A program made the translations under genes and the position numbers. The notes below the pieces were generated by a model. It searched no databases. It saw nothing but the letters and a program-made list of their open reading frames with translations, and was not told the origin of the DNA. A stretch of 29,037 bases of DNA from a virus, in the UHGV virus genome UHGV-0149439; one strand, given 5' to 3'. The first letter of the stretch is position 1. The number at the start of each line of letters is the position of its first letter. Positions 1,657 to 10,478 of this stretch are shown here, piece after piece.

Positions 1657-2832
1657 TCAGTTAGTTTTTTTATTCAAGTGGGTAACAGATGTATTGTTAT
1701 CGTATGCTTTAAGATACCTACCGTAATGTCGAAAAAGCATCTCTGGCCCCTTATGCCCCATTTGCCCCGCCAGCCAGAAAAGGTTAACTCCTCGACTGAT
1801 TAGGCGTGTGGCATATGTGTGACGGGTCTGATAGGGATTGCGGTACCTGATACCGGCTTTCCGTAGCGTTGGCACCCACGCTTTTTTCCTTATTGCATCC
1901 GCGCTGGCCCATGGCTTGTATGTCTTTGGATCCTCAAAGACACAGCCATCTTTCATGAAAGTAAAGGGCTTTTGATCGTTAAGTGCGATTATCGCTTCCT
2001 CAGTTAATTCAACTTTGCGAGTTCCCGCCTTAGTTTTCGTACCTTTTGTCACGCCTGAAACACTGGCGCTCTGTACATGCGCCGTCTTCTCAATGAAATC
2101 AATATCCCTCCAGCGGAGTGCGCATAGTTCCGAGCTGCGAAGTCCTGTCTGGATCGCAAATCTGAATAAGTTCTTCCACTGCTTATTGCCTGTTGATGTT
2201 AACAGCGCGTTCACCTCAGCTGGTGACAGCGGATCAACCACATAACTACTTTCTGCCTCTGATTTATCACTTTGGTACCGTGAAGCTGTCACCAGTGATA
2301 CAGGGTTAATCTGAAGCACACCATCCGTCACCGCCTCATCCAAAGCTGAACGCAGGAATGACAGTTGGTTTCGGATAGTCTTTAATGTTGTTTTCTGGTT
2401 CTGGATCCATGTCTTCAGCGCGGCCGGCGTCAACTCACTTGCAGGAAAAATATGAAGTGATGACAGCGCGCTTCGGCATTTCTTATATCCACCAATTGTT
2501 GAAGGGGATAGTTTTCTCGTTTCACAGATAACCAGATACTCGTCCAGGTACATCTTCACCGTTTTGCCTGCGGCAGCGTTGCCGAAAATTTTTAACCGGG
2601 TAGAACGGGGAAAGTATTCTGCATAAACAAATGTCCCCCTCTCGATCTTGTTATGGATTTCGCCGAGTGTGCGCTCGGCGTATTTGATGTTTTTAGGAGT
2701 TACGTCCAGATTAGAAAGGGGCTCACGGCATTTAACCCCTTTATAAGTGAAAGTAATATTGATGGTTTCGCCGTTGCGGTGTTTCCTGATGGTTACGCCG
2801 CGCGGGAGCTTAGGCGATTCTGTCGTGCCCAT
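1657..2832 (-). CDS. int: Tyrosine site-specific integrase (lambda Int family), 391 aa
   Basis: Size and C-terminal catalytic region typical of tyrosine recombinases (R...H-x-x-R...Y arrangement, HTYATRL... context); GAGG Shine-Dalgarno 8 nt upstream; excisionase immediately upstream. Confidence 0.93.
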   Translation of the reverse strand: MGTTESPKLPRGVTIRKHRNGETINITFTYKGVKCREPLSNLDVTPKNIKYAERTLGEIHNKIERGTFVYAEYFPRSTRLKIFGNAAAGKTVKMYLDEYLVICETRKLSPSTIGGYKKCRSALSSLHIFPASELTPAALKTWIQNQKTTLKTIRNQLSFLRSALDEAVTDGVLQINPVSLVTASRYQSDKSEAESSYVVDPLSPAEVNALLTSTGNKQWKNLFRFAIQTGLRSSELCALRWRDIDFIEKTAHVQSASVSGVTKGTKTKAGTRKVELTEEAIIALNDQKPFTFMKDGCVFEDPKTYKPWASADAIRKKAWVPTLRKAGIRYRNPYQTRHTYATRLISRGVNLFWLAGQMGHKGPEMLFRHYGRYLKAYDNNTSVTHLNKKTN

Positions 2833-3011
2833 TTTGCAACCTCATTAAGATCAATCCATCTTTCCTTAACGCCGTCGACCTTTAGCACCTGAACCCCTTC
2901 ACGCCATACTCCACGTTGCACACGTTTGTTGATGGCATCCGGGGTTTCGCCAGTCTCTTTGCAATAAGTTGAGATGGGAACACAATCGAGGCTCAGCATA
3001 TATTTCTCCAT
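2793..3011 (-). CDS. xis: Excisionase-like small DNA-binding protein (72 aa; alternative start at 2999 has a better GGAG Shine-Dalgarno)
   Basis: Small basic protein directly upstream of and overlapping int (40 nt), the classic xis position. Confidence 0.65.
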   Translation of the reverse strand: MEKYMLSLDCVPISTYCKETGETPDAINKRVQRGVWREGVQVLKVDGVKERWIDLNEVAKWARQNRLSSRAA

Positions 3012-3062
3012 ACAATCCCGGCTGCACCCGGTAGTTTGATATTGTTTATTAGCTGGTTATTG

Positions 3063-3614
3063 TTAGTTGGTTTTCTTTAGTCCAAAGTAAAGTCCTGCGG
3101 CTATGCTTATTATGCCTGCAGCTAGAACACCAATAATCCAATAAAATAATGTTATAAATCGTTCTAACTGTTTGTCTGAGTAATCACTCATAACTTTTAA
3201 TGATGTGCTCAATGACTCCATATCTTTCTTCATGAGAGGTAAAGCCATTGCTTTTTCAGGACTATTTCCAAGTATATTATTAAGCGTGGATATCTTTTTC
3301 TGTATGTCATCAACTTTTACTTCCAACGCTTCTATTCGTATATTATCTGGGGTAAGGGTTGAAGTATTTTTTAAGGCACTTAACGTGTTTCTTACCTGAA
3401 ATATCTCATCCCTATAGGTGCTTATTTCGTTCATGAGATGATCTGTATCTATTTTTTTATCATAAGATGTAGGTAATGAAACATTTACTATTGAAGTGGC
3501 TTTATCTTTTATTTCTAAGGTCAAAGGAATGAGTATCGATCCCAAAGCGACCAGCATAAGAATAGGGGATAGTATTGCTATACTCTTTGCTAATGCGTTA
3601 CTTGTAAATGACAT
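3063..3614 (-). CDS. Hypothetical two-TM coiled-coil membrane protein (183 aa), low-GC
   Basis: Hydrophobic helices at both N- and C-termini with a charged heptad-like middle; GAGGGA Shine-Dalgarno before the ATG; TTGCAA -35-like element at 3651-3656. Confidence 0.7.
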   Translation of the reverse strand: MSFTSNALAKSIAILSPILMLVALGSILIPLTLEIKDKATSIVNVSLPTSYDKKIDTDHLMNEISTYRDEIFQVRNTLSALKNTSTLTPDNIRIEALEVKVDDIQKKISTLNNILGNSPEKAMALPLMKKDMESLSTSLKVMSDYSDKQLERFITLFYWIIGVLAAGIISIAAGLYFGLKKTN

Positions 3615-3801
3615 GAGTCCCTCTTCATAGTATTGTGTAGTACGTTTTTATTGCAACTTACTGTTATGGATAGTTTTTTGTTAAAGTCATTGAGAGATTA
3701 GCATGTTTTAGCGTTAATTCATTGCTTTAATGAGGCCAAAACTAATATTCCAAGCCCTGTCTCATTTGCTTAATGACACTATAGGCCAACAGACAATTTA
3801 A

Positions 3802-3900
3802 TCATGGCAGCGTCCAGTGTCGATTTGATTTATTCATAAACATACTCGTATCCAGTAAGCCAAGAAAATCTGGCACTACGGTCATGCGGTCATTACTCAT
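3802..3900 (-). CDS. Candidate small ORF (32 aa, MSNDRMTVVPDFLGLLDTSMFMNKSNRHWTLP), below the ORF-track size cut-off
   Basis: ATG preceded by GAGGG with a 7-nt spacer; same orientation as the leftward operon. Confidence 0.3.
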   Translation of the reverse strand: MSNDRMTVVPDFLGLLDTSMFMNKSNRHWTLP

Positions 3901-4876: not shown

Positions 4877-5569
4877 TCAGGCGTGACGTTTGAATGATTG
4901 AGATTGGCTTATCATTACTTTCCCAAAAATGTAAAAACGGTGTTCGTTAGTCTTGTCCACGGACCATTCTCTATATTTTGGGTTATCCGATATCACCAAC
5001 AACTTATCAGGTATCATCTGTAATCGTTTGACGTAAATTTTATCATCAAAACCAAATACATAGATTCCATCACCATCGAACTCATGAATAGAGATATCAA
5101 CGAAGAGAAGATCACCAGGCTCGATTGTCTCAGCCATACTGTCGCCTCGAACGTTGATTACCTTTACTTGATCTGCCGTTCTTCCGCCGAACATCGCTAG
5201 CGCACGTTCATTGTTGTATTCGATTGACCTGATGACATCAATGATGTCGCTGCCTTGAATAAAGCCGCCACCAGCACTGGCACTAACATCAAGAATCTCC
5301 ACTCTAAACACAGATCCATCTCCAGAATGTGGATTACTACCACTGTATTCACATACAGTAGTTTTATTTCCACCTGGAGTAAATAGATCAGCAACGCTAA
5401 CGCCTAAAGCTTGAGCATATTTGCTAAGTGATTGTTCAGTAAATGACTTCTGCTTGCCAGTTTCTACACGCGAGATGTTAGCTCCGTCGACACCAACGGC
5501 TTCAGCAAGATCAGCGATTTTTAGACCCTTCGCAGTGCGAAGTTCTCTTATGCGGTTTCCTATGTTCAT
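4877..5569 (-). CDS. cI: CI-type prophage repressor: N-terminal HTH, C-terminal S24 LexA-like autopeptidase (230 aa)
   Basis: N-terminal HTH (IADLAEAVGVDGANISRVETGK); C-terminal region with GDSM (catalytic Ser) and a downstream Lys; divergent from cro. Confidence 0.9.
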   Translation of the reverse strand: MNIGNRIRELRTAKGLKIADLAEAVGVDGANISRVETGKQKSFTEQSLSKYAQALGVSVADLFTPGGNKTTVCEYSGSNPHSGDGSVFRVEILDVSASAGGGFIQGSDIIDVIRSIEYNNERALAMFGGRTADQVKVINVRGDSMAETIEPGDLLFVDISIHEFDGDGIYVFGFDDKIYVKRLQMIPDKLLVISDNPKYREWSVDKTNEHRFYIFGKVMISQSQSFKRHA

Positions 5570-5666: not shown

Positions 5667-5912
5667 ATGCAATCACCGTTACGAATCTTGCGTAAATCGC
5701 AAGGTATGACTCTTTCCTATGTAGCAAAAGGGGTTGATATCGACCCGGGAAATCTAAGTCGGATAGAGCGAGGGCAGCAAATTGCTTCCCTAGATATTGC
5801 TGAACGTCTAGTCCGTTTCTTCGCGGGAAAAATCAATGAGCTAGAAATCCTTTATCCACACCGCTATTCGAACTGTACAGGCGCGAGTACAGACATAAAA
5901 CCACAGGAATAA
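5667..5912 (+). CDS. cro: Cro-like HTH regulator (81 aa)
   Basis: AGGAGG Shine-Dalgarno; HTH segment MTLSYVAKGVDIDPGNLSRIERG; divergent from cI. Confidence 0.8.
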   Translation: MQSPLRILRKSQGMTLSYVAKGVDIDPGNLSRIERGQQIASLDIAERLVRFFAGKINELEILYPHRYSNCTGASTDIKPQE

Positions 5913-5922
5913 GGGGTTAACC

Positions 5923-6474
5923 GTGGGTAACGAACCAATCTGGAAAGTCGAACGTCAGCCTAGTTGGCTGGTGGTAGCGATTAAAAAAACGATTACCGAT
6001 CTGCCTGGTGGATATTCTGAGGCTGCGGAATGGTTGGGCGTGACAGAGAACGCATTGTTTAACCGCCTTCGTGTGGACGGGGATCAGATCTTCCCTATGG
6101 GATGGGCGATGGTGCTACAGAAAGCCGCCGGTGTTAGCTACATAGCAGATGCGTTTTCTCGTCAAACAGATAACGGGATTCATATCCCTGGTGCAGCACC
6201 AGAAACAGAGAACGAAGAAATTGGCTTAAAGCTGGCTGAGCTGGTGGGCAGGCTTGGGGATCTGGTCAACGCATACCGTCGATACATCGATGATGGTGTA
6301 GTTGATAAAGGGGAGTGGGACAGTCTGAATGAAATCGCCTACCAGTTCCGGGTAACGCTTATGACGTTCCTGAACCTGATTTCACGAGTTTATTGTCTTC
6401 CTGAAAAGAGTGACGCCCGCGAGTGTGCAGCTCCGGGCGCCTTGGCGAACAAATCTTCGAGTATGGAGAAATAA
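5923..6474 (+). CDS. CII-like phage regulatory protein (183 aa); family assignment tentative
   Basis: Position immediately after cro; AAGGGG Shine-Dalgarno then GTG; HTH-like segment AAEWLGVTENALFNRLR. Confidence 0.45.
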   Translation: MGNEPIWKVERQPSWLVVAIKKTITDLPGGYSEAAEWLGVTENALFNRLRVDGDQIFPMGWAMVLQKAAGVSYIADAFSRQTDNGIHIPGAAPETENEEIGLKLAELVGRLGDLVNAYRRYIDDGVVDKGEWDSLNEIAYQFRVTLMTFLNLISRVYCLPEKSDARECAAPGALANKSSSMEK

Positions 6475-6646
6475 TCCGCATGAGCAGTTTAACGGCTTTT
6501 AACCGTCTACCGCAACTCAGGATGATCCCGGTTTCGGGTACTCCGTTGTTTCGGTATGAACGCAGATTATCAAACCGCTGGGTTCCGTGTAACCACAGTA
6601 GGGCGGTTTCAATTGTGGGGGTCTATAACCGGAGGGCAAAACGCCT

Positions 6647-6826
6647 GTGCGCGAACTTAACCGAAGGTTCAAAGACAACCGCGGAGTGCCAGTCCGTGTT
6701 ATCCGCTGGGAGCCAGAAACACAGCGCGTTATCTATCTGCGTGATGGCTACCCACACGAATGCTTCAGCCCACTTGAGCATTTCAGGCAAAAGTTCAGGG
6801 AGATAACGGACGATCATGAGCACTAA
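6647..6826 (+). CDS. Candidate small protein (59 aa, VRELNRRFKDNRGVPVRVIRWEPETQRVIYLRDGYPHECF...), missed by the 60-aa ORF cut-off
   Basis: GGAGGG Shine-Dalgarno 10 nt before a GTG start; ends 11 nt into the replication gene; more protein-like than the overlapping track ORFs 6423..6806 and 6623..6823. Confidence 0.3.
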   Translation: MRELNRRFKDNRGVPVRVIRWEPETQRVIYLRDGYPHECFSPLEHFRQKFREITDDHEH

Positions 6827-7673
6827 ATTAACCGGCTACGTATGGGATGGTTGCGCGGCGTCGGGCATGAAGTTGTCTAGTGTCGCGATCATGGCTCGCC
6901 TTGCTGATTTCAGCAGCGATGAGGGGGTGTGCTGGCCGTCCATTGAAACTATTGCTCGTCAGCTTGGCGCGGGGCCGAGCACTATCAGAACGGCAATCGC
7001 TAAGCTTGAAAAAGATGGCTGGCTCACGCGTACACAGCGCCGCAATGGTAACCGTAATGCGTCGAACGTTTACCGCCTGAATGTGGCGAAACTTCAGGCT
7101 GCCGCATTTTCTCAACTGTCAGATTCTGACACGTCAAAATCTGACGCATCAAAATTTGACGCCTCAAAAGCTGACCCGTCGAAATCTGGCAAAAACGGCG
7201 GTTTTGACCCGTCAGAATCTGGCGGGGATCCGTCAGTAAAATCAACACAAGATCCACAAGTAACTTCAAAACCCTCTTGTCCGGTTGCGGCGCAACCAGA
7301 CCCTGAAGTCGTGATTACTGACCAGGCGATCTTAGTTTTGTCCCATTTGAATCAGATCAGCGGATCCCGGTATCAGAAATCAAAAACATCCCTGGAGAAC
7401 ATTCGTGCCCGACTGCGTGAGGGGTACAGCGTTGCAGACCTGCAACTTGTTATCGACCTGAAGCATGAACACTGGCACGAGAACGACGAGCAGTACCAGT
7501 ACATGCGCCCGGAAACGCTGTTCGGCCCGAAGAAATTCGAGAGCTATCTGCAAAGCGCTACCCGCTGGGAGCAGAAGGGACGGCCTAAACGCGCTGACTG
7601 GGGTGCGAAAAATCGCGATGTGATGGCTTTTGGTCCGGTTGATACAAGGATTCCAGAGGGGTTCAGAGGATGA
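6816..7673 (+). CDS. Phage replication initiation/organiser protein (N-terminal winged-helix region, repeat linker, conserved phage C-terminal domain)
   Basis: N-terminal HTH-like region (SIETIARQLGAGPSTIRTAIAKLEKDGWLTR); C-terminal DLQLVIDLKHEHW...ETLFGPKKFESYL block typical of phage replication proteins; internal iterons. Confidence 0.7.
   Translation: MSTKLTGYVWDGCAASGMKLSSVAIMARLADFSSDEGVCWPSIETIARQLGAGPSTIRTAIAKLEKDGWLTRTQRRNGNRNASNVYRLNVAKLQAAAFSQLSDSDTSKSDASKFDASKADPSKSGKNGGFDPSESGGDPSVKSTQDPQVTSKPSCPVAAQPDPEVVITDQAILVLSHLNQISGSRYQKSKTSLENIRARLREGYSVADLQLVIDLKHEHWHENDEQYQYMRPETLFGPKKFESYLQSATRWEQKGRPKRADWGAKNRDVMAFGPVDTRIPEGFRG
7126..7218 (+). repeat. Iteron array (candidate origin) inside the replication gene: four tandem 15-bp repeats plus one offset copy
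   Basis: ctgacacgtcaaaat / ctgacgcatcaaaat / ttgacgcctcaaaag / ctgacccgtcgaaat in perfect 15-bp register (7126-7185), fifth copy ttgacccgtcagaat at 7204-7218. Confidence 0.6.
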
Positions 7674-8551
7674 CGTTAAACAAATATTGCCAGGCGCTGG
7701 TGGCACTACGTAGCCAACCAGCCCACGAATTGAAAGAAGTTGGCGATCAGTGGCGGACACCGGATCTGCTTTTCTGGGGTATCAACGCGCTATTTGGACC
7801 ATTAGTTCTGGACTTGTTTGCTGACGACGACAACGCGAAGTGCCCGGCATGGTACACCGCCGAAGATAATGCGCTGACGCAGGACTGGTCTGAACGTCTT
7901 GCAGAACTGGGTGGCGCTGGTTATGGCAACCCACCGTATAGCCGTTCGCAGTACCACGAGAAACAGGCGATCACCGGCATGACGCACATCATGAACTACG
8001 CAGCAGCCCAGCGCGAAAAGGGCGGGCGTTATGTATTCCTGATAAAAGCCGCGCCGAGTGAAACGTGGTGGCCGGAAGATGCCGATCACATTGTATTCAT
8101 TCGCGGGCGCATTGGGTTCGATCTGCCTGTGTGGTTTGTACCGGCTGACGAAAAACAGAAGCCCACCAGCGCGTTTTTTGCCGGTGCCATAGCTGTATTC
8201 GATAAGTCGTGGCGTGGTGAGCGGTTCAGCTATATCAACCGCACAGAACTTGAGGAAAAAGGGCGGGCATTTATGGCGTTGGCTCAATTCGCCGTTGGTA
8301 AAGAGCAAACAATTGCAATGCAGGCAGCCAGGGAACCAGCAGCAACACCGGAAACTGAGTCACGAATCTGGCCTCTCGAGGTTGGTCTGGTGTTTAACCA
8401 GGTGGAAGGCGTTGATGTATTGAGCGAGGCCCAGCAGAACAAACTGAAAGCCAACATCAATCAACTCTGGCTGGAACGAACGGCCACCAGCGAAATTATC
8501 ACAATTGCGCGTGGTCTTGTTGGCAGCATGCAGGGGGTAACCCATGCGTGA
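7670..8551 (+). CDS. DNA N6-adenine methyltransferase, phage Dam-like (293 aa); no adjacent endonuclease
   Basis: GYGNPPYS (DPPY/NPPY motif IV of amino-methyltransferases); start overlaps the upstream stop. Confidence 0.75.
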   Translation: MTLNKYCQALVALRSQPAHELKEVGDQWRTPDLLFWGINALFGPLVLDLFADDDNAKCPAWYTAEDNALTQDWSERLAELGGAGYGNPPYSRSQYHEKQAITGMTHIMNYAAAQREKGGRYVFLIKAAPSETWWPEDADHIVFIRGRIGFDLPVWFVPADEKQKPTSAFFAGAIAVFDKSWRGERFSYINRTELEEKGRAFMALAQFAVGKEQTIAMQAAREPAATPETESRIWPLEVGLVFNQVEGVDVLSEAQQNKLKANINQLWLERTATSEIITIARGLVGSMQGVTHA

Positions 8552-10478
8552 GATTATCGTTGATAACTTTGCTGGTGGCGGTGGTGCATCAACGGGTATT
8601 GAACTGGCGATCGGACGCAGCGTGGATATTGCGATCAACCACGACGAAAACGCCATTGCGATGCACAAGACGAACCACCCGGACACACTGCATTATTGTG
8701 AATCCGTATTTGACGTGGATCCTGTAGCCGCCACCGGAGGTAATCCAGTCGGACTGGCGTGGTTTAGCCCGGACTGCCGACACTTCTCGAAGGCAAAAGG
8801 CGCAAAGCCTGTGAAAAAAGAGATACGCGGTCTTGCCTGGATTGTTCTGCGTTGGGCACTGGCGAAGCGACCGCGTGTGATGATGCTGGAGAACGTGGAA
8901 GAGTTCAAAACGTGGGGACCGCTGCTGGCCGATGAAATGCGTCCGGATCCTGCCCGCACTGGCGAAACATTCAATGCATTTGTCGGCATGCTGTCCACTG
9001 GCATTCCTGCTGACCACCCGGCACTGTCAGAAGTTTGTGAGTTTCTGTCTATTGAAAGAGGTAGCGAGCAGGCGCAACTGCTGGTGGATGGGCTTGGATA
9101 TGATGTTGATTATCGCGAACTACGCGCGTGTGATTACGGCGCGCCGACGATCCGCAAACGCTTCTTCATGGTTATGCGCTGCGATGGCTGCCCAATCCAG
9201 TGGCCTGCTGTTACCCATGGGGATCCTAAGTCTCTGGAGGTGCAGAGCGGCAGGCTGATGCCATGGCGTACCGCTGCGGAATGTATCGACTGGAATGTTC
9301 CGGCCCTGTCCATCTTCGACCGCAAAAAACCGCTGGCGGAGAACACTCTGAAGCGGATCGCGCGCGGCATACAGCGCTTTGTTATCGAAAGTGCGTCGCC
9401 GTTTATCGTGAAGTGTAACCACACAAGCTCAAAAAATTCGTATGACGCTTTTCGCGGGCAGTCGCTGAATGAACCATTACAGACCATTACTAAAAAACTC
9501 GGCTACGCGTTAGCCGTTCCACACCTGACAAAATTCCGCACTGGCGCAACCGGGCAGCCCGTTACCGAACCTGTCCCGACGGTAACCGCTGGCACGTCAA
9601 AACGCCCGGGTGGGAATGGGCATGCTCTCGGGATTGTTGAGGCTGCACTGACGCCATTCCTGGCGGGTAATGGTGGTAGTGAATACCAGGCTAAACCGCG
9701 CCCGCTGGATAAACCTGCTCATACCATTCTGAAGCAATCCCGCGCCTGTCTGGTTGCGCCAGTGATAGCCCGCCAGTTTGGGGCCAGCGTTGGCCATCGG
9801 GCAGACGAACCGAGCGCAACCATAACCGCTGGCGGTGGCGGTAAATCTCAACTGGTAACGCCTACGCTGATCCAGATGGGTTATGGCGAACGACCTGGAC
9901 AAGAACCGCGTGTGCTGCGGCTGGATAACCCGCTGGGGACCGTTACTGCAGGCGGAAATAAATTTGCGACGGTGAGCGCGTTCCTGGCGAAACACTACGG
10001 CGGTAACTATACGGGGCCTGGTGTCAGTATGGATGAACCCGCGCATTCAGTGACCACTGTCGACCATCATGCAGTAGTTGCCTCTCATCTGGTGAAACTG
10101 CGTGGAACATGCCGCGACGGGCAACGCCTGGATGGGCCCATGCCAACAATCACCGCTGGTGGCCAACACGTGGGTGAGGTACGCACATTTCTCGAGACGT
10201 ATTGCGGGGAAAGTGACGATGAATGGCTGGTAACTATCGATGGGGTGAAATACCAGATCGTTGATATCGGAATGCGCATGTTGCAGCCGCATGAACTCTA
10301 CAAAGCGCAGGGCTTCCCCGATGGATACGTTATTGATCAGGACTACCGTGGAAATCGCTATGCAAAAGATAAGCAGGTAGCCCGCTGCGGTAATGCGGTA
10401 CCACCACCATTCGCCAGGGCGCTGGTGGAGGCAAATCTTCCGGAACTGTGTGCAGTGCAACAACAGGAGGTGGCATGA
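8544..10478 (+). CDS. DNA cytosine-5 methyltransferase with an unusually long variable region of repeated modules (644 aa)
   Basis: Motif I FAGGGG, catalytic SPDCRHFSKA (PC motif), ENV motif MLENVEEF, C-terminal CGNAVPPP; five T(I/V)TAGG-type repeats in the variable region. Confidence 0.88.
   Translation: MREIIVDNFAGGGGASTGIELAIGRSVDIAINHDENAIAMHKTNHPDTLHYCESVFDVDPVAATGGNPVGLAWFSPDCRHFSKAKGAKPVKKEIRGLAWIVLRWALAKRPRVMMLENVEEFKTWGPLLADEMRPDPARTGETFNAFVGMLSTGIPADHPALSEVCEFLSIERGSEQAQLLVDGLGYDVDYRELRACDYGAPTIRKRFFMVMRCDGCPIQWPAVTHGDPKSLEVQSGRLMPWRTAAECIDWNVPALSIFDRKKPLAENTLKRIARGIQRFVIESASPFIVKCNHTSSKNSYDAFRGQSLNEPLQTITKKLGYALAVPHLTKFRTGATGQPVTEPVPTVTAGTSKRPGGNGHALGIVEAALTPFLAGNGGSEYQAKPRPLDKPAHTILKQSRACLVAPVIARQFGASVGHRADEPSATITAGGGGKSQLVTPTLIQMGYGERPGQEPRVLRLDNPLGTVTAGGNKFATVSAFLAKHYGGNYTGPGVSMDEPAHSVTTVDHHAVVASHLVKLRGTCRDGQRLDGPMPTITAGGQHVGEVRTFLETYCGESDDEWLVTIDGVKYQIVDIGMRMLQPHELYKAQGFPDGYVIDQDYRGNRYAKDKQVARCGNAVPPPFARALVEANLPELCAVQQQEVA

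Follow-up and report, generated by a model that had tools for sequence, protein, structure and literature searches.

The initiator gene and its setting

The stretch of viral DNA considered here (UHGV virus genome UHGV-0149439; 29,037 nucleotides, hereafter the window, over whose full 29-kb length all positions are numbered) carries, inside the gene for a replication initiator, a cluster of short repeats that an initial annotation made from the sequence alone had proposed as an origin of replication; the analysis presented below points to the same reading. The gene (6816-7673, plus strand) encodes a product of 285 amino acids (aa) with matches in Pfam, PHROG and TIGR02220. Its N-terminal winged-helix part (aa 1-97; 6816-7106, plus strand), the presumed iteron-binding module, matches HTH_36, GntR, MarR and DnaD_N models, with Pfam HTH_36 at aa 23-70 reaching an E-value of 2e-12 and 47.1 bits (cut-off 25). 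The C-terminal Phg_2220_C part (aa 174-246; 7335-7553, plus strand), presumed to recruit partner proteins, gives a Pfam E-value of 7e-24 and 84.1 bits (cut-off 27), and TIGR02220 scores 67.8 bits against the initiator (cut-off 66.65). PHROG families named "replication initiation protein", "replication initiation O-like" and "primosomal protein" match with E-values of 1e-50 to 1e-81, and a "DnaD-like helicase loader" family matches with 4e-8. The protein is a member of the phage initiators that combine HTH_36 and Phg_2220_C (PHROG 428, PHROG 11896, TIGR02220), both domains passing their thresholds. An identical protein occurs in 45 contigs, assigned to Citrobacter koseri by one source.

The gene order begins with an integrase, a cI-type repressor (4877-5569, minus strand), cro (5667-5912), a YmfL/CII-like gene (5923-6474) and a DUF4222 gene (6647-6826), followed by the initiator; downstream lie a Dam-type methyltransferase (7670-8551), a C5 methyltransferase (8544-10478), and then RusA, Ant, DUF968 and Q. 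The locus is the early-right operon of an e14/SfIV/SfII-like lambdoid prophage. The domain content, the PHROG initiator families and the place of the gene after cI, cro, a cII-like gene and DUF4222 bear out the initial assignment of the gene as a replication initiator.

For comparison, 77 loci from different bacterial species were collected with the N-terminal domain only (aa 1-98) as query, which leaves the sample unbiased towards the repeats; N-domain identity across these loci ranges from 67% to 99%. The number of relatives varies by analysis (about 58-75 Enterobacterales relatives), and most locus-level counts are out of 73. Three of the assemblies (L023, L028, and L053, labelled Vagococcus, Chryseobacterium, and Martelella) carry this enterobacterial prophage gene with 80-91% aa identity, and these contigs are probably contamination within the assemblies.

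The repeat array and its flanking elements

In the register chosen by the initial annotation, copies of CTGAC-N-C-N-TCAAAAT lie at 7126-7140 (CTGACACGTCAAAAT, exact), 7141-7155 (CTGACGCATCAAAAT, exact), 7156-7170 (TTGACGCCTCAAAAG, two mismatches) and 7171-7185 (CTGACCCGTCGAAAT, one mismatch). The four had been described as perfect-register repeats; their coordinates and the spacing of exactly 15 bp hold, but the copies are not identical (0, 0, 2, and 1 mismatches). The fifth, offset copy is also present, at 7204-7218 (TTGACCCGTCAGAAT, two mismatches), starting 33 bp past the fourth. Tandem Repeats Finder reports 7125-7188 with a period of 15, 4.3 copies and 79% matches (score 79), and a repeat search returns six copies spaced 15, 15, 15, 15, and 33 bp, including a weaker upstream copy at 7104-7128. 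The motif TGACNCNTCRAAA, with at most one mismatch allowed, occurs eight times in the 29-kb window compared with 1.18 +/- 1.10 (maximum 4) in 100 shuffles; six of the eight matches fall within 7127-7217, two of these being the offset copy read on both strands, and no second cluster of such sites is found elsewhere in the window. As proposed, the repeats lie inside the open reading frame (ORF) of the initiator (6816-7673, plus strand), where they encode a Ser/Asp/Lys linker with the peptide SDSDTSKSDASKFDASKADPSKS.

Read in a register that starts at 7117, the array consists of five abutting 15-bp units (7117-7191; starts at 7117, 7132, 7147, 7162, and 7177; consensus nGTCAaAATCTGACn) with dyad symmetry. 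Unit 1 (TGTCAGATTCTGACA) is a 15-bp palindrome with 7/7 symmetric pairs, units 2 and 3 have 6/7 each, and units 4 and 5 are degenerate (3/7, counted by hand). The offset sixth site (CGTCAGAATCTGGCG, 7210-7224), which has 6/7 symmetric pairs and stands 3 bp off the 15-bp register, is the best-conserved copy. A further palindrome (AAAAACGGCGGTTTT, 7191-7205; 6/7 symmetric pairs) fills the spacer between the array and the offset site and is under moderate synonymous constraint. Array and offset site together occupy about codons 101-136 of the 285-codon gene, so that at least three dyad-symmetric repeats, namely three units and the offset site with at least 6/7 symmetric pairs each, lie between the N- and C-terminal domains.

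The repeats are followed, as in lambda, by an A-rich segment (7226-7275) that is a candidate unwinding region and holds two GATC sites (7227-7230 and 7251-7254, 24 bp apart). Over 7233-7275 the GC content is 0.35 (A 20, T 8, G 3, C 12), with an A-rich top strand, compared with 0.53 for the gene; the segment is a local GC minimum with a strong strand skew, although weaker than the lambda tract. Both GATC sites are invariant across the 73 loci, and Asp is always encoded by GAT there, whereas it is GAC in the repeats. The right edge of the region, which is also a module junction (see below), is marked by the palindrome GGTTGCGGCGCAACC (7283-7297; extended arms 7279-7301), recognized by repeat search and symmetry. 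Its arms, GGTTGC-nnn-GCAACC, are kept in most relatives that share the palindrome segment and in phage F1055, and compensatory arm changes are seen in two loci (GGTTCC/GGAACC in L079, GGTTTC/GAAACC in L051), with two amino acids altered at once. The palindrome may be an origin element or a recombination hotspot. No DnaA box with at most one mismatch occurs in 6600-7900; a candidate at 7249-7257 (AGATCCACA) was rejected, having two mismatches to the consensus and reading CATCAG in most relatives.

Selection on the repeats as DNA

Codon choice was examined in 251 repeat units from 70 genes, the units being chosen by peptide pattern and not by DNA. Within the units, TCT encodes 87% of the Ser residues that precede Asp and TCA 87% of those that precede Lys; in the rest of these genes TCT and TCA account for 9% and 16.5% of Ser codons. 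Lys uses AAA in 99.5% of units (61% elsewhere) and Asp uses GAC in 82% (47% elsewhere). Conserved Ser columns of the N-domain, by comparison, use two to six different codons, and the commonest codon has a mean frequency of 0.55. A profile of top-codon frequencies over 58 aligned genes gives means of 0.56 for the N-domain (74 columns), 0.91 for the array, 0.95 for codons 125-150 (the core block), 0.84 for codons 151-165 (the palindrome segment) and 0.59 for the C-domain; the excess over the two domains is significant by the Mann-Whitney test for both the array (p = 4e-10) and the core block (p = 1.5e-8). The zone of synonymous-site constraint defined by these frequencies spans codons 98-162 (7107-7301) and is the proposed extent of the origin. 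The constrained element is larger than the interval given by the initial annotation, 7126-7218.

A near-invariant block runs through the 73 loci as TTT GAC CCG TCA GAA TCT GGn GGG GAT CCG TCA GTA AAt TCA AAA caa GAT CCA TCA. The codons of the offset site (TTT GAC CCG TCA GAA TCT) are 88-100% identical, and the third positions of GAT CCG TCA GTA ... GAT CCA TCA are 92-100% identical. Relatives have between three and nine sites per gene. The 15-bp period of the initial annotation proves real: of 294 pairs of neighboring sites, 242 keep it exactly, and the offset site follows the array at a distance of 33 or 48 bp, always n x 15 + 3. All but one of 370 sites in the relatives are confined to the linker (369/370). 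The core TCARAATCTGA survives amino-acid changes: Providencia units encode the peptide SKSV and still keep the DNA TCAAAATCTGT, and in the Trabulsiella locus L079, where the peptide is SERS/DSEG, the units form 15-bp palindromes (GTTCAGATTCTGAAC) that are perfect or nearly so. These patterns show that the repeats are under selection as DNA and not merely as codons. The initial annotation had left room for a linker that is coding sequence and nothing else; what is found is synonymous choice that is fixed and position-specific in dozens of species, next to flanking domains in which it is free.

Exchange of modules among relatives

Where a relative has a different N-domain, the repeats in this place are also palindromic but differ in sequence (e.g., GGGGCAGGAGCTGCCC with a period of 22-24 bp in Stx2a_F451 and SI5, GTGCA-n5-TTCAC in ST64B, and GGTCAAATTCCGACC in Vibrio phage Va_PF430). 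SfIV-type phages are similar to the window over 6405-7255 and divergent thereafter, and the SfIV initiator combines the N-domain and repeat array of the window with a homologue of the lambda O C-domain (BLASTP E-value 1e-25). The reverse combination is found in the Salmonella phages F1055 and 118970_sal3, which share the C-domain of the window (~90% nucleotide identity from 7268) and have an unrelated N-domain with about four 23-bp palindromic iterons (AGATTGCGGnnAnCCCGCAAACA). The repeat sequence thus co-varies and is inherited with the N-domain, apart from the C-domain, and these mosaics indicate that the N-domain and repeats form one module and the C-domain another. In the window, the N-domain and repeat module fills the slot of the origin-binding module of lambda. 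In 118970_sal3 the gene as annotated extends further, giving a 437-aa product with additional C-terminal sequence.

A proposed origin of replication

Position, dyad symmetry, co-variation with the N-domain, and modular exchange all support the proposal that the gene contains an origin in the manner of lambda: 7107-7301 is probably the replication origin of an e14/SfIV-like lambdoid prophage, lying inside the linker-coding part of its own initiator gene, and the repeats are most likely the sites bound by the initiator. From the comparison of related sequences we infer binding, unwinding, helicase recruitment and origin activity as follows. Dimers of the N-terminal winged-helix domain would occupy the abutting palindromic units of the array (7117-7191) as well as the best-conserved copy (7210-7224), and the nucleoprotein complex so formed, the counterpart of the O-some of lambda, would strain the adjacent A-rich GATC segment (7226-7275) and lead to its opening. 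The Phg_2220_C domain, possibly together with the C-terminal tail IPEGFRG (7650-7670, plus strand), would then bring in the host replicative helicase. As in lambda, rightward transcription from a promoter on the cro side would traverse the origin. The linker, flexible to judge by its composition, would tolerate the Ser/Asp/Lys peptide as a by-product of the DNA signal.

Several observations weigh against this interpretation. Units 4 and 5 are poor palindromes in the window, and the AT-rich stretch is modest (GC 0.35 over 43 bp). The 15-bp spacing corresponds to about 1.4 helical turns, unlike the 20-24 bp of lambda and other arrays, and the geometry must therefore differ from that of the phased sites of lambda. 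The N-domain is not Pfam Phage_rep_O, so that the parallel with lambda is one of architecture and not of demonstrated homology. With neither a helicase loader nor a DnaA box found, helicase loading has no identified partner. Frozen synonymous sites would fit any other function at the DNA or RNA level equally well. Finally, experimental work on the origin of this family was not found in the literature, in which subscription journals were thinly covered.

No helicase or helicase-loader gene was recognized among the early-region ORFs scanned, the window has no P-type loader gene directly downstream of the initiator, and a lambda P homologue occurs in one of 73 related loci. A GFR(G/S) ending is present on 50 of 75 relatives, often after D-Y-S-x-I-P, and stands on Phg_2220_C-type and lambda-O-type C-domains alike; it is missing in the phiP27 relative, whose DnaC and DnaB genes adjoin the initiator gene. 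At a guess, the tail may serve as a short peptide on which a host replication protein docks. An alternative C-terminal extension of ~45 aa, ending in W-x-x-I-W-K/Q, is likewise found on both C-domain types.

The Dam-type N6-adenine methyltransferase and the 644-aa C5 cytosine methyltransferase are the next two genes after the initiator, in overlapping frames, and a Dam-type gene lies at most 2.5 kb downstream of the initiator in 34 of the 73 loci. A link between methylation and origin firing is possible.

Alternative explanations

A mechanism that departs further from lambda, and that we consider doubtful, is a self-sufficient "solo" initiator system. The abutting iterons, about 1.4 turns apart, would allow an unbroken spiral of initiator dimers along the DNA in place of the phased, bent O-some of lambda; the host helicase would be recruited by the GFRG tail itself, without a loader from the phage; and the invariant GATC pair would place firing under Dam/SeqA, possibly through the Dam-type methyltransferase encoded by the next gene. 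In keeping with such a system, the tail stands on two unrelated C-domain types and is lacking in the phiP27 relative, where DnaC and DnaB are encoded beside the initiator gene.

It is improbable, although less so than the explanations that follow, that the sites bind the initiator chiefly for control (autoregulation, titration or handcuffing, or exclusion of related phages) and that replication truly starts elsewhere. Co-variation with the N-domain and synonymous constraint indicate a DNA-level function tied to that domain, of whatever kind, and the iterons of plasmids are established to serve both initiation and control. Against control alone stand the other standard parts of an origin (the A-rich stretch and the palindrome), which come after the array and are also under constraint, and a position and module logic that match the experimentally proven origin of lambda. 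In addition, the window, which covers part of the prophage, contains no second cluster of sites and no other candidate origin.

The probability is lower still that the repeats are a coding linker alone, a Ser/Asp/Lys pentapeptide expanded by slippage whose uniform codons reflect recent duplication or concerted evolution. The peptide does resemble a flexible low-complexity linker, and copy number changes in steps of 15 bp among relatives (three to nine sites per gene), as slippage would give. However, the two Ser positions hold distinct codons (TCT and TCA) in genes whose N-domain synonymous sites are scrambled, and the non-repeated block at 7202-7265 is even more invariant than the repeats, which concerted evolution cannot explain. 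The DNA core is moreover kept where the peptide changes, and where other families have unrelated peptides at this position, palindromic DNA repeats encode every one of them.

Least probable of all is a second product, either an antisense or alternative-frame small ORF (7024-7269, minus strand, 81 aa; 7081-7239, plus strand, 52 aa) or a structured RNA: the minus-strand frame lacks stops across the 180-nt region in 42 of 73 relatives and the single strand folds better than shuffles (z = -3.9). The repeat unit by itself, however, produces the open frame, and stops interrupt it in the other 31 of 73 relatives, for which reason an overlapping ORF was rejected as the cause of the constraint. A good fold is to be expected of any array of palindromes, searches of 6400-7900 returned no Rfam match and no RNA families, promoters or terminators beyond chance (promoter- and terminator-like sites being no commoner than in shuffles), and the different palindromes of other families at the same place, like the travel of the repeats with the N-domain, would go unexplained.

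Comparison with known systems

Preferring an origin at 7107-7301, we find its closest counterpart in lambda, where both the arrangement of the origin inside gene O and the function of the iterons are experimentally established (PMC7466680). The four annotated iterons of lambda, 18 bp each, occupy codons 117-145 of O with spacings of 20, 24, and 23 bp, and an A-rich tract comes after them; codons 117-145 compare well with about codons 101-136 here, in agreement with the lambda-like position claimed initially. In lambda and the Stx phages (with six-iteron origins in the latter), as in the window, the origin sits centrally in the initiator gene, flanked by an N-terminal domain for DNA binding and a C-terminal domain for partner binding, several dyad-symmetric sites precede an A-rich stretch (a modest one in the window), the number of iterons varies among relatives, and the N-domain and iterons are exchanged as a module; the C-domain of the SfIV-type relatives is in addition homologous to that of lambda O. 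There are also differences. The N-domain here is HTH_36 and not Phage_rep_O, the units are 15 bp long and abutting instead of 18-19 bp long and spaced 20-24 bp, one extra site stands 3 bp off register, the A-rich part has two invariant GATC sites, the C-domain is Phg_2220_C without profile similarity to that of lambda O, and no P-like gene follows. PF04492 gives no match to the window protein at E-values up to 0.01 (5.7e-36 for lambda O itself), and BLASTP of the window protein against lambda O finds nothing (best E-value 0.81).

Two apparent links to lambda were rejected. The likeness between CGTCAGAATCTGGCG and the right arm of the lambda origin (CGTCAGAGAATTCTGGCG) looked striking by eye but is no better than expected by chance, its local alignment score of 18 being reached by 214 of 500 shuffles. 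The legend of an HHpred figure (PMC5509034) hints, within that legend, at remote homology between Phg_2220_C-type C-domains and that of lambda O; hhalign of 59 Phg_2220_C-type against 9 lambda-O-type C-domains gave a probability of 1.7%, and Pfam finds no Phg_2220_C in lambda O.

The parallel extends to other lambdoid phages and beyond. Comparative work of 1979 by Grosschedl and Hobom and by Moore and colleagues on the origins of phi80, 82, 21, and P22 (gene 18) reportedly showed that each O-like gene has its own iterons and that, in hybrids, the N-terminal part of the initiator sets origin specificity. The same pattern is seen here in natural mosaics, with the difference that those origins were mapped genetically and biochemically whereas that of the window is proposed on the strength of sequence comparison. 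In the Bacillus phage SPP1, oriL lies inside gene 38, whose product G38P is an origin-binding replisome organizer, and the helicase loader and helicase genes adjoin. The window shares with SPP1 the placement of initiator-binding repeats within the gene of the origin-binding protein and the DnaD-like/replisome-organizer class to which the PHROG matches point; SPP1 differs in having its own helicase loader and helicase, and in host, repeat sequence, and repeat layout.

Iteron plasmids (e.g., pSC101, R6K, RK2, and P1 oriR) also place repeated initiator sites beside an AT-rich region, and P1 oriR and oriC have GATC sites in the AT-rich part under Dam/SeqA control, which the two invariant GATC sites of the window recall. 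The Rep proteins of these plasmids contain a pair of winged-helix domains (WH1-WH2) and in most cases require DnaA boxes, and plasmid iterons are typically ~17-22 bp long and ~two turns apart. The window does not fit this type, having no DnaA box in 6600-7900 and no plasmid Rep family above the Pfam threshold (the best, RP-C, reaches 18.3 bits against a cut-off of 24.4).

Neighboring genes and the e14 loci

The DUF4222 ORF (6647-6826, 59 aa) overlaps the start of the initiator by 11 nt, and in 63 of 73 related loci a DUF4222 gene immediately precedes the initiator. The DUF4222 protein was considered as the binder of the repeats and rejected, since the repeats persist at loci where no upstream DUF4222 homologue is detected; the DUF4222 gene is consequently not an obligatory partner of the repeats. 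The DUF4222 ORF also overlaps a YmfM-like ORF (6423-6806) in another frame. In the Escherichia coli e14-type locus L077, a 112-aa ORF (2153-2491), which we take to be YmfM, overlaps the DUF4222 frame (2332-2511), and the YmfM-like frame is open in just 11 of 40 loci that keep the DUF4222 frame. YmfM has been reported as a cause of SOS-inducible filamentation (bioRxiv 10.1101/2020.11.19.390815). Given this report and the overlapping frames, which of the two frames is responsible may merit a check.

The E. coli loci L077 and L083 also contain a 455-aa ORF (2501-3868), presumably YmfN of e14, in which approximately the first 79 residues of the initiator family are joined to what looks like a terminase. 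The iterons and the rest of the origin are deleted at these loci, and their loss from the e14 copy would account for the inability of e14 to replicate. A 34-bp tandem repeat (GCTGACCTGCCAGGTCAAATTCTATGGCATCGAT, 28915-28992; 2.3 copies, 97% identity) lies toward the right end of the window, in an apparent late region.

Prevalence and significance

The initiator gene is very common: 2828 proteins are found at E-values up to 1e-5, 2749 of 5426 complete E. coli genomes have a match, and its hosts include prophages of Citrobacter, Salmonella, Escherichia, Klebsiella, and many other Enterobacterales. Its annotation is inconsistent: the labels "conserved phage C-terminal domain-containing protein" and "GntR family transcriptional regulator" predominate, "primosomal protein" and "putative transcriptional activator" are also used, and the replication role is mostly missed. 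Some GenBank records already name such genes "replication protein O".

An origin within the initiator gene is textbook knowledge for lambdoid phages, and the gain is one of annotation and detail, not of concept. What is new is that synonymous constraint delimits the origin, that the 15-bp units abut, that the GATC pair is invariant, and that no loader gene was recognized. No description of the origin of this family was found in the literature searched, which left subscription journals largely outside, and one may exist. Recognition of the gene as an initiator, together with an origin at about 7107-7301, would give these prophages a defined replication module, and the pair would be compact and testable, without a dedicated helicase loader. 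The array would also be a clear example of a DNA signal dictating the sequence of a protein linker.

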